Of a DNA stretch of 54,495 nt, positions 3,134 through 41,568 are shown piece by piece. The DNA comes from an uncultured Gammaproteobacteria bacterium (GTDB lineage Bacteria; Patescibacteriota; Microgenomatia; UBA8517). The number at the start of each line of letters is the position of its first letter. Positions within the stretch are counted from its first letter, which is position 1. The position numbers were made by a program, and so were the translations under genes. The notes below the pieces were generated by a model. The model was not told the DNA's origin. It saw nothing but the letters and a program-made list of their open reading frames with translations, and made no database searches. Where the stretch lies: assembly GCA_964395115.1 (NCBI GenBank), contig CAYMZX010000007.1, forward strand, positions 1-54,495. The letters run 5' to 3'.

Positions 3134-4381
3134 ATGACCACATCAGACGACATCAAGGCAATAGTTAAAGATCTGAGGAGACAGAGGGAGGCTTTGGAGA
3201 GAAAAGAAGCCCTTCTGAAAACTCGTGAAGAAGAATTGATCTCTCGGTTAGAAAAAGTGGCCGGGATCAATAGAGAAGAAGCGAAAAAAATTCTTCTTGA
3301 AGAAATCCAGAAAGACCTTACGGCAGAAATAGCTAAAAAGATTAGGAATGCCGAGGAAAGAATCAAAGAGGAAGCGAGCCAGAAAGCTAGAGAAATTCTA
3401 GCCGATGCGATGAAACACGGGGCGACTACTTATACGGCAGAATATACAGTTTCTTCAGTAACCGTTCCAAATGAAGATGTCAAGGGGAGAATCATTGGTG
3501 CCGGCGGAAGAAACATAAGAACATTTGAGAGGGAAACGGGGGTTGAAATAGAAATCGACGAAGGAAATGAAATTAGGCTTTCTTCTTTTGATGCCATAAG
3601 GAGGGAAATTGCCAAAAGAAGTCTTAAGCGGCTTATCAAAGATACCAGGATCCAGCCCTCAAGAATCGAAGAGGTGGTTAAACAAGTCAAGGGAGAAATC
3701 GAAGATGTTCTTTTAGAGGAGGGAAGAAGAATTACCCAAGAATGTGGAGTCTACAATCTCCCCCTCGAACTTATTAAATTAATCGGCCGTTACAAATTTA
3801 GGACATCTTATGGCCAGAACTTGGGTCTGCATACAATAGAGGAAACAAAAATTGGAGTTGCTATTGCTAATGAACTCGGGGCTAATGTGGACATTGTTCG
3901 CCTAGGGTGTCTCCTTCACGATATTGGCAAGGTGGTTACGGATGAAGAGGGAACTCACATAGAGGTTGGAGTTAACACTCTTAAACGATTTTCGCTTCCC
4001 AAGGAGGTAATTGCCTGTGTTGCTGAGCATCACGAAGATAAGCCTTTCTCTTCGACCGAATCGGTAATTGTCTGGACGGCTGATGCTATTTCCGGTTCTC
4101 GACCCGGGGCCCGATATGAACCCCATGAAGAGTATGTTAAGAGAATGAGTAAGATCGAGGAGATTGCCGCCTCGTTTCCGGGAGTAGAATCAGTTGTGGC
4201 ATTTCAAGCCGGCCGAGATGTCAGGGTAATTGTCAACCCAGAAGAAGTTGATGACGAGGCAATAACTGTTTTAGCTCATGATATTGCCAAGAGGCTGGAG
4301 AAAGAAACAGAGTATGCCGGACAGATAAAAGTAACAGTAATTAGGGAAATTCGAGCCAGCGAGTCGACTGTTGCTAAGTAA
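3134..4381 (+). CDS. rny: Ribonuclease Y (KH + HD domains), no N-terminal TM anchor
   Basis: KGRIIGAGGRNIR (KH), RTSYGQN, LLHDIGK, ADAISGSRPGAR, IKVTVIRE. Confidence 0.95.
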   Translation: MTTSDDIKAIVKDLRRQREALERKEALLKTREEELISRLEKVAGINREEAKKILLEEIQKDLTAEIAKKIRNAEERIKEEASQKAREILADAMKHGATTYTAEYTVSSVTVPNEDVKGRIIGAGGRNIRTFERETGVEIEIDEGNEIRLSSFDAIRREIAKRSLKRLIKDTRIQPSRIEEVVKQVKGEIEDVLLEEGRRITQECGVYNLPLELIKLIGRYKFRTSYGQNLGLHTIEETKIGVAIANELGANVDIVRLGCLLHDIGKVVTDEEGTHIEVGVNTLKRFSLPKEVIACVAEHHEDKPFSSTESVIVWTADAISGSRPGARYEPHEEYVKRMSKIEEIAASFPGVESVVAFQAGRDVRVIVNPEEVDDEAITVLAHDIAKRLEKETEYAGQIKVTVIREIRASESTVAK

Positions 4382-9326: not shown

Positions 9327-9623
9327 CTCTGGAGGAAGGATGACCGGGCACCGACAACATATTTTGTTGCGGCCGTCAGGAAAGTCCAGGCAGCAGAAGG
9401 CAGGGTGGTCGCTGTAAAGCGGCACGCGAAAGCGCTAGTTAGAGCCACAGAGACGACAACTCATTTCGGACCAGATAGGTTCGGAAAAGAGAGTGAAAAG
9501 AGGCAATCCTCCCCGCTGCAACCTCCGACCGGGTCGTTACTAGGTCGCCTTCCCGAGACCCAAGGATAGAGGGCTTAGATAGATGGTCATCTGAAACAGA
9601 ACCTGGCTTACTAGCCTCCAGAG
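9327..9623 (+). ncRNA. rnpB: RNase P RNA
   Basis: P1 CTCTGGAGG/CCTCCAGAG, conserved AGGAAAGTCC and ACAGAACCTGGCTTA, AGAGCCACAGAGAC. Promoter TTGAAA-17-TATAAT at 9291-9319. Confidence 0.95.
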
Positions 9624-9627
9624 ATAT

Positions 9628-9658
9628 GAAATGCCCCTCCCAAAAGGAGGGGTATTTC
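9628..9658 (+). terminator. Hairpin terminator after rnpB
   Basis: GAAATGCCCCTCC-CAAAA-GGAGGGGTATTTC. Confidence 0.7.
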
Positions 9659-9686
9659 ATTGGCAGAAAAATGAATGGAAAAGCTT

Positions 9687-10096
9687 AAAAAAACAAACGA
9701 GCCGGACAGACATCAAAGAAAGTAAAGAAATCAACTTTCTTTGAGCCAGCCGGCTCGGTTTTTCTAAAGGAACCGGATAGAGTGGAATGGGAGGTCACCG
9801 CTGCCCATAATCCGGTTCCTTACCCCAACCGACCTTTCGGTCGGAAATGGGTGGCGGAGAGGTTTCCGCAGAAAGAGAAGACCGGCCCCAGACCTGCCTG
9901 CTCCATCCGCTTAGCCTCTCCATGAGAGGAGTTAAACAGGGTTTAGTCCCTACTACTCCCGATTTAAATGAACTTTTTTATCAGGCTTTTGCCGTTTTGC
10001 AATTCGGCCGCCTGTTATTTTTCTGAACAGGAAACAGGTTATTACCCGTCTCCTGTTCTGGAGGAGAGGAAACGCCAGTGGCGTCCTGCCGTCACA
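9687..10096 (-). ncRNA. Candidate novel ~410-nt structured ncRNA
   Basis: Minus-strand promoter TTGACC-16-TATAAT (10103-10130), about eight hairpins including one with a GAAA tetraloop, and a final stem plus U-tract. No credible ORF. Confidence 0.6.
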
Positions 10097-10153
10097 AGAC
10101 AAATTATACCTCAAATTAATTTGAGGTCAAGATTTGCTAAAATGCCTATATAA

Positions 10154-10591
10154 ATGCGGCTTGTTATTCAAAGAGTTAAAAAGGCAACCGTTAAAGTTAA
10201 AGGCAGGGTTGTCGGCAATATCGGAAGGGGGTATTTAGTGTTGGTGGGAATTAAGAAGAGCGATGGCCGAAGCGAAGCCGAGTTATTGGCGGAAAAACTC
10301 TCCAAATTGCGAGTGATGGCCGACGAAAATGACAAAATGAATCTTTCTATAAAAGAAGCGGGAGGAGAAATCTTGGTGGTTTCCCAATTTACTCTTTATG
10401 CCGACACTTCCGGGGGCAATCGTCCATCTTTCATCGAAGCGGCCGATCCTAAATTGGCCAGGGACGTTTATGAATATTTTATCTACAAACTCAAAGAGAA
10501 GGAAATAAGGATTGAAACCGGGAGTTTTGGAGACTATATGGAAATCAGCGCCCTTCTTGACGGACCAGTAACTATCAATTTGGAAGCTTAA
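10154..10591 (+). CDS. dtd: D-aminoacyl-tRNA deacylase
   Basis: MRLVIQRV, VSQFTL, GNRPSF, DGPVT. Confidence 0.97.
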   Translation: MRLVIQRVKKATVKVKGRVVGNIGRGYLVLVGIKKSDGRSEAELLAEKLSKLRVMADENDKMNLSIKEAGGEILVVSQFTLYADTSGGNRPSFIEAADPKLARDVYEYFIYKLKEKEIRIETGSFGDYMEISALLDGPVTINLEA

Positions 10592-41304: not shown

Positions 41305-41392
41305 GACCTATAATGCCTGGCGAACTAGAATATCACTTTTGTGTTGGTAAGTCCACTAACTTGGAATCGTTTCCCCCGGGGGAGCAGTATAA

Positions 41393-41513
41393 GGAACGAA
41401 ACGCAGTGAAGTGACCCCACTGGGACTCGTGTGCACAAATTTCTTCCATACTTGGCACTATCGAGGAACAGTGTGGGGAACGAAACGCAGTGAAGTGACC
41501 CCACTGGGACTCG
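41393..41513. repeat. 37-bp direct repeat duplicating the tRNA-Glu 3' end
   Basis: GGAACGAAACGCAGTGAAGTGACCCCACTGGGACTCG at 41393-41429 and 41477-41513. Confidence 0.9.
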
Positions 41514-41568
41514 AACCCAGGTTTCTAGGATGAGAACCTAGTGTCCTAGACCGCTAGACGATGGGGCC
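41496..41568 (-). tRNA. tRNA-Glu(CTC)
   Basis: GGCCCCA/TGGGGTC acceptor stem, CTAGG-TTCTCAT-CCTAG anticodon arm, GGTTCGAGTCC; CCA not encoded. Confidence 0.96.

Follow-up and report, generated by a model that had tools for sequence, protein, structure and literature searches.

In our study, a stretch of 54,495 nucleotides (hereafter the window, meaning the whole of the analysed DNA) was examined around a gap of 527 nt (9627-10153) between rnpB and dtd, whose minus strand was found to hold a complete transcription unit with promoter, helices and terminator. The features of this locus are as follows.

9328..9626, plus strand: rnpB, a reduced RNase P RNA (class A), 107.9 bits in Rfam against a gathering score of 100
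9687..10096, minus strand: predicted RNA transcript of about 410 nt, which would start about 7 nt past the -10 box and end at the U run
10103..10130, minus strand: promoter of sigma-70 type for the RNA gene, with a 16-nt spacer and a match at 11 of the 12 consensus positions
10108..10127, no strand: perfect 20-nt palindrome, operator-like, filling the promoter spacer; also called as a terminator-like hairpin
10154..10591, plus strand: dtd (D-Tyr-tRNA deacylase), PF02580, 181.6 bits, divergent from the RNA gene

A first-pass annotation, made from the letters of the DNA, had described a minus-strand promoter, a series of helices and a U-tract in an RNA gene converging on RNase P RNA, and all the elements so described are present. 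The promoter agrees with the consensus at 11 of 12 positions, a terminator stem is followed by a U run, and rnpB lies on the plus strand in convergent orientation, with 60 nt between the two 3' ends. The promoter of the RNA gene is located 50 nt away from the start of dtd, and the operator-like palindrome of 20 nt sits between these two divergent genes. The rnpB RNA has a length of 299 nt in comparison to the 367 positions of its model, its score of 107.9 bits lies only just above the threshold of 100, and its fold surpasses shuffles to a modest degree only (z -2.3).

The G+C content of the RNA region is 50% against 41.6% for the genome, and the RNA was found by nhmmer to be single-copy within the 648-kb genome. 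An identical sequence was assembled in two hot-spring metagenome DNA runs from two studies, one of which is possibly the source of this genome, and the contigs of both runs carry no variants in the RNA stretch. These two DNA runs were the only ones found to contain the stretch, with no RNA run among the runs searched. The neighbouring genes (miaA, an AI-2E-family transporter, dtd, and genes with DUF4446 and DUF3048) give no functional clue for the RNA. Pfam searches of six neighbouring window genes returned ordinary housekeeping domains in five and none in the sixth, and no partner gene on the RNA's own strand was seen among the neighbours.

Helices, stability and strand of the RNA

The helix coordinates were derived by hand, and those of the helix ends may deviate by 1-2 bases. 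A single homologue of the RNA was found, on the metagenome contig L019, and its counterparts are mentioned along with the helices.

10072..10084, minus strand: P1, a short 5' hairpin taken from sequence and fold; a 9-bp hairpin stands at the same place in L019
10060..10069, minus strand: linker of 10 nt made up of pyrimidines only, its core being anti-SD-like; L019 has a comparable tract of 9 nt
10025..10058, minus strand: P2, a 15-bp hairpin with G-U pairs, arms 10025-10039 and 10044-10058, 87% complementary as DNA
9982..10014, minus strand: P3, with an inner palindromic hairpin at 9991-10008 and a 10-nt loop at 9995-10004
9961..9981, minus strand: J3/4, an A-rich junction containing the conserved motif 9962-9973
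9927..9960, minus strand: P4, a hairpin in two parts, bulged by 2 nt on the 3' side, whose 3' strand hardly varies between the two RNAs
9856..9921, minus strand: P5-P6, a long hairpin of irregular shape with a closing helix of 7 bp, from the MFE fold; L019 has an equivalent long hairpin
9822..9852, minus strand: P7, a hairpin with a GNRA-type tetraloop, from the MFE fold
9767..9821, minus strand: P8, a hairpin with a perfect 12-bp outer stem, arms 9767-9778 and 9810-9821
9687..9763, minus strand: P9, an extended terminator stem (stem 9698-9757, inner arms 9713-9723 and 9734-9744, U run 9687-9697)

The nine helices proposed by the first-pass annotation are all readable in the sequence, and five were also recovered as inverted repeats, namely P2, P8, the palindromic hairpin of P3 and, within P9, the inner arms and the pair 9692-9705 and 9750-9763. 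Seven of the nine appear in the MFE fold as they had been described, whereas the two short helices that had been placed within 9856-9921 give way to one long hairpin. The loop of P3 carries six self-complementary bases at its centre with adenines on both flanks, and the stretch 9989-10009, 21 nt in length, is identical in L019. In L019, P2 corresponds to a bigger, branched structure whose stem base is similar, the position of P8 is occupied by a perfect 10-bp outer stem of unrelated sequence, and the 3' end has a comparable long stem and U run. No clear counterpart of P7 was observed when the folds were compared.

A scan for long-range pairing, considering complementarities common to both RNAs and allowing G-U pairs, returned 26 candidate windows, none of which was singled out. 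By eye, J3/4 could be paired with the apical part of P9 in each of the two RNAs, one position of this pairing having changed in both partners; this is indistinguishable from chance.

The MFE of the minus strand was found to be -183.7 kcal/mol in comparison to -131.3 +/- 5.8 kcal/mol for 100 dinucleotide shuffles, none of which was as good (z -8.99). In a separate control the z of the 410-nt RNA was -8.6, against -2.3 for rnpB and -6.1 for tmRNA of the same genome, and 24 random windows of 410 nt gave a mean z of -0.41 (sd 1.38, minimum -4.66).

The plus strand of the same stretch also folds better than its shuffles (MFE -156.4 kcal/mol, z -5.5) and bears a terminator-like hairpin at 9741-9758, and the two L019 strands are on a par in fold energy (-199.6 and -197.2). 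The structures could on these grounds be taken as a 3' trailer of rnpB or as a 5' leader regulating dtd, both read from the plus strand. Here, however, the minus strand is more stable by 27 kcal/mol, and promoter as well as terminator stand on the minus strand in both loci. As the first-pass annotation had held, the G-U pairs favour the minus strand: the positions of P2 that are not complementary as DNA are G-U on this strand, and the one-sided changes seen in P4 between the two RNAs, from G-U to A-U and from U-G to C-G, form pairs on the minus strand only, which fits an RNA read from that strand. Moreover, rnpB abuts dtd without any insert in three other loci (L021, L022 and G006), and L019 keeps the RNA with no rnpB nearby. 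A plus-strand origin of the structures is hence considered very improbable.

Comparison with known RNA families and coding capacity

The RNA was compared with the 4227 models of Rfam 15, which include OLE, ROOL, GOLLD, HEARO, raiA, 6S, tmRNA, SRP and the group I and II introns. It matches none of the 4227 families at the gathering score, and the matches of the window were confined to rnpB and two tRNAs. A permissive scan of 9600-10200 (601 nt) at E up to 10 produced only chance hairpin matches, the best of them to a microRNA hairpin model with 25.5 bits (cut-off 98). For L019 no Rfam match was obtained at E up to 0.1, and according to ARAGORN neither the window nor L019 contains a tmRNA. The earlier statement that hallmarks of tmRNA, SRP, 6S and introns are lacking is thus upheld by the Rfam scans at E up to 10.

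The tmRNA of this genome was located elsewhere (C3:1174-1533, 168.5 bits, RF00023). A sub-threshold candidate for 6S RNA was noticed at G000:C1:58982-59133 on the minus strand, with 28.4 bits against a gathering score of 46.4 (E 1.7e-4). For SRP RNA (RF00169 and RF01854) no match was found at E up to 10 in this genome; counting this genome in both samples, RF00169 was absent from all 41 genomes searched and RF01854 from all 39. Further, Ffh and FtsY were not detected in the 97%-complete genome by profile searches (PF02978, PF00448) or by a six-frame motif search, and SecY, used as the positive control for the SRP protein search, was detected. For an SRP54-type GTPase (PF00448), 15 relatives yielded no convincing match, and 60 other genomes of the phylum yielded none at E 1e-10. 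The two SRP subunits are described as absent in many CPR bacteria (PMC8080830); the absence of SRP proteins is hence known in print, and its phylum-wide extent in the present sample is striking. No SRP RNA is to be expected in this genome because Ffh and FtsY are absent, and the identification of the RNA as SRP RNA was rejected for a genome without SRP proteins.

Patescibacterial RNAs are often reduced and low-scoring, as the rnpB of this genome illustrates with 107.9 bits at a cut-off of 100, and no SRP RNA was found in the genome, so a very divergent member of a known family (SRP RNA, 6S, tmRNA, a group II intron, a retron or a transposon-nuclease guide RNA) was also considered. Such an identity is the least credible of the alternatives. 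The scans at E up to 10 yielded nothing beyond short chance hairpins, tmRNA and the 6S candidate lie elsewhere in the genome, SRP RNA is not expected where Ffh and FtsY are lacking, and the six neighbouring genes show only ordinary housekeeping domains or, in one case, none.

The RNA resembles 6S RNA, RNase P RNA and tmRNA in having its own promoter and terminator, a G+C content above the genome mean and a strong structure, and it adjoins rnpB. It differs from these nearly universal RNAs in that it was not found in the other genomes searched, and none of their signature elements was detected in it; all three have candidates elsewhere in the genome.

A small protein-coding gene was tried as an explanation and rejected, the minus-strand ORFs being of 53 and 42 aa here and of 122 aa in L019, with no similarity between them. 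In tblastx of the window against L019 only the identical 21-mer was returned, in all frames, with no shared reading frame.

The homologue, the pyrH slot and the distribution of the RNA

Homologues were sought in 80 metagenome loci gathered with Dtd as the anchor, a search that covers dtd-linked copies only. The nhmmer search with the RNA gave L019 as its sole match (E 3.4e-5), and the reverse search, with the noncoding stretch of L019 against the whole 648-kb genome, returned only 9667-10010 (E 1.8e-6). With the window as its only source, a covariance model scored L019 at 28.6 bits, the next best among 52 sources being 15.9 bits. In L019 the RNA lies on the strand opposite to dtd, with a promoter that matches 11 of 12 consensus positions, has a 16-nt spacer and ends 51 nt from the dtd start; it has a terminator of its own and a fold z of -9.9. 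The palindrome that fills the promoter spacer at 10108-10127 is missing from the L019 spacer, as read from its sequence. Between L019 and this organism the Dtd proteins are 66% identical and the ComM-like proteins 57.5%.

J3/4 and P4 are well conserved between both RNAs, and P1, P2, P5-P6, P8 and P9 recur at the same places in L019 with different sequences. Out of the 13 pairs of P4, seven are unchanged, two have one-sided changes and four lack pairing in one of the RNAs. The core that aligns reliably comprises two sequences only; 88% of its cells are paired, with two one-sided and no double changes, and shuffles do equally well. Past P4 the alignment is unreliable, P5-P6 being aligned by nhmmer at low posterior probability. 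The outer helices P2, P8 and P9, kept with different sequences, are not alignable base by base. RNAalifold on the two-sequence MAFFT alignment retained only 63 pairs (-53.8 kcal/mol). Selection on the RNA structure is indicated indirectly, because both RNAs are exceptionally stable and have the same helix order, and promoter and terminator are kept while the sequence has mostly diverged.

The position of the RNA gene corresponds to that of pyrH in close relatives. In the genome G007 (locus L115) the order is rnpB (plus), pyrH (minus) and dtd (plus), with pyrH in the slot at L115 762-1496, and in L020 pyrH (minus) abuts dtd (plus), with the slot at 3260-4018. The proteins encoded in these slots are UMP kinases, with TIGR02075 scores of 304.6 bits (L115) and 294.7 bits (L020) against a cut-off of 243.9, and with PF00696. 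In L018 and L024 pyrH lies within 4 kb of dtd, and these two loci, like L115 and L020, are among those whose Dtd is closest to that of this genome (65-71% identical). In this genome, 97% complete, pyrH was not detected by tblastn or by Pfam (PF00696). In the lineage of this genome and L019 the RNA gene thus stands at the former pyrH site, in the same orientation, having either displaced pyrH or arisen in the space that it left. The RNA region has no similarity to PyrH in tblastn at E up to 1000, and a pyrH pseudogene was rejected on this ground.

The stretch might also be a non-functional relic of the loss or displacement of pyrH, such as the scar of a deletion or what is left of an element once inserted there, with hairpins that are stable through the hot life of the host. 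The slot is that of pyrH in the close relatives L115 and L020, this genome is without pyrH, and the RNA family is confined to two lineages, all of which would suit a relic. Nevertheless, no residual PyrH similarity was left even at E up to 1000, and a relic would not be expected to keep a promoter, a terminator, a z of -9 to -10 and a hairpin of 21 identical nucleotides while the proteins have diverged to 57-66% identity. A relic in the form of a repeat or MITE is countered by the copy number: the RNA is single-copy in the genome and is therefore neither. On the whole a relic is regarded as improbable.

The genome searches for further members were samples, the larger ones run under stricter filters, and their result is that the RNA was not found in the genomes searched. 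When the 421-nt stretch was compared by blastn with 40 relatives, the top foreign match (E 0.002) covered 30 nt, and none exceeded 51 nt. The 21-mer, allowed up to three mismatches, matched in 11 of 400 other genomes of the class in comparison to 9 for the reversed control pattern. A two-motif pattern gave three matches in a species-genome collection (Acinetobacter, a Bdellovibrionia MAG and a Bacteroidetes MAG), about the number given by chance, and two patterns run over viral contigs had no matches; nhmmer with both RNAs on 14 loci taken from 21-mer and two-motif pattern matches found nothing. A covariance model of two sequences, the window RNA and the L019 RNA, was run over 124 other genomes of the family and returned two weak matches (30.8 and 25.3 bits). 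Both were rejected on inspection, one being AT-rich without the P3 and P4 pairs and the other lying inside an open frame of 164 aa. The same model found nothing new over the order (138 other genomes, of which 124 are the same family genomes) and nothing over 150 other genomes of the class. Among the dtd loci of 28 relatives none had a comparable ORF-free structured stretch matching either RNA by nhmmer, and in L021, L022 and G006 rnpB abuts dtd directly.

The first-pass annotation had proposed a new large class of ncRNA. The RNA being stand-alone, structured and outside every Rfam family agrees with that proposal, whereas just one homologue was found and the RNA is lineage-restricted; a new class is in this respect only partly supported. 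As judged from the sequences, the family would comprise two members and be lineage-restricted, because L019 is the only homologue found. The absence from the other genomes searched therefore argues against a widely needed function.

Possible function and likeness to other large bacterial RNAs

The best explanation of the locus is probably a stand-alone gene on the minus strand for a structured ncRNA, real, functional and of a new family. This judgement draws on the promoter, the helices, the terminator, the stability, the lack of an Rfam match, the homologue and the lack of a coding signal, all of which are observed, and it is made for the gene and not for the docking mechanism discussed below. 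The RNA would have a strong promoter and an intrinsic terminator of its own, on the strand opposite to rnpB and dtd, and would function as a folded particle rather than as an mRNA, a leader or an antisense RNA. Selection would have maintained the gene within one narrow group of Patescibacteria from hot springs, in the slot that holds pyrH in close relatives.

The linker after P1 had been noted earlier as anti-SD-like, and a trans-acting regulatory RNA was considered, in which this tract would pair with the Shine-Dalgarno regions of mRNAs, or the RNA would titrate a protein, the rest serving as a stabilising scaffold. A pyrimidine-only tract follows P1 in both RNAs, and here it is mostly unpaired, with unpaired probabilities of 0.31-0.89 overall and of 0.78-0.89 for 7 of its 10 nt. 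The tract is conserved in L019, but its predicted state there is a paired one (unpaired probability 0.00-0.31), so that a free anti-SD mimic is not borne out. Within the RNA itself several purine-rich stretches can serve as partners for the tract, the 410 nt and nine helices far exceed the needs of known base-pairing sRNAs, and the loops of the predicted fold have no repeated motif among them that would point to a sponge. A regulatory role of this kind is accordingly held to be doubtful. A second remark of the first-pass annotation, linking 9962-9973 to a boxA motif of the SD-led cassettes, was not sustained: the 12-nt motif is present, but with up to two mismatches it has 3 matches in the window against 14.4 expected, and since these are fewer than chance would give, it marks no repeated box.

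To our knowledge, elaborate bacterial RNAs above about 400 nt are rare, and every solved function among them has been that of a ribozyme, of an RNP core or, recently, of a self-assembling RNA cage. Among the mechanisms considered for the present RNA, a folded particle with P3 as its docking site, perhaps forming a homodimer, was ranked first, because P3, J3/4 and P4 are the most constrained parts, the P3 loop is palindromic and OLE and GOLLD offer a precedent; the odds given to this modelled mechanism are nonetheless low. The invariant core of P3, J3/4 and P4 would form the docking surface, and the palindrome in the P3 loop might lead to a symmetric loop-loop (kissing) dimer, as in the OLE and GOLLD RNAs, or to the binding of a protein partner. 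Here the loop has an unpaired probability of 0.78-1.0, and the predicted self-duplex has six pairs (-5.9 kcal/mol); in L019 the unpaired probability is 0.04-0.94, which leaves the loop not clearly free. A six-base palindrome within a 10-nt loop has, by arithmetic, a chance of about 8%, which also tells against this mechanism.

OLE, ROOL and GOLLD are presented as large 'ornate' bacterial ncRNAs that form homo-oligomers, and palindromic loops as forming symmetric kissing bridges in the homo-oligomers of OLE (L9.3) and GOLLD (L21a/b) (PMC12286853). The RNA described here is like the three of them in being large (over 400 nt), multi-helix, stand-alone and bacterial, and like OLE it comes from an extremophile setting. 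As in OLE L9.3 and GOLLD L21a/b, the centre of a strictly conserved hairpin loop is palindromic, oligomerisation in the present case being a prediction from the loop alone. Unlike these RNAs, it matches none of their Rfam models and has a far narrower distribution (two lineages), and it is accompanied by no oapA/B/C-like associated genes and by no phage or mobile context.

Directly downstream of the RNA copy in L019, a second structured unit was observed.

L019 1865-2676 including the promoter (778 nt, 1865-2642), minus strand: second structured unit, directly downstream of the L019 RNA copy

This unit has a promoter with 12 of 12 consensus positions and a terminator, is G+C-rich and ORF-free, and shows a z of -6.6 over its 778 nt. 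It gave no Rfam match and contains no tRNA or tmRNA, and neither this genome nor any of the fetched loci has a homologue of it. It is like the 410-nt RNA in being promoter-led, terminator-ended, ORF-free and Rfam-negative and in having one P3-like hairpin, which was recognised by eye and whose loop is not palindromic. A kinship with the 410-nt RNA was rejected, as there is no significant sequence similarity. The occurrence of a look-alike hairpin without the palindrome makes a protein-binding or tertiary module a better fit than self-pairing.

A more far-reaching reading, to which only slight credence is given, takes the two RNAs as founders of a new class of large RNAs, either catalytic or self-associating, which arose exactly at the site of the lost pyrH, and under its promoter position, in a small clade of hot-spring Patescibacteria, with the 778-nt RNA of L019 as a partner molecule. 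If this were true, a complex RNA machine would have emerged recently while protein genes were being lost from the genome. The narrow distribution limits the general importance of the RNA. Even so, a new large RNA in ultra-reduced Patescibacteria would show that complex RNAs are still being invented amid the loss of protein genes (pyrH here, and SRP proteins in many CPR), and it would offer a compact, very stable and thermophile-derived target for structural study.

Elsewhere in the window, a direct repeat of 49 nt with 92% identity was observed at 41381-41429 and 41465-41513, the second copy of which overlaps the 3' end of tRNA-Glu (41495-41568, minus strand).
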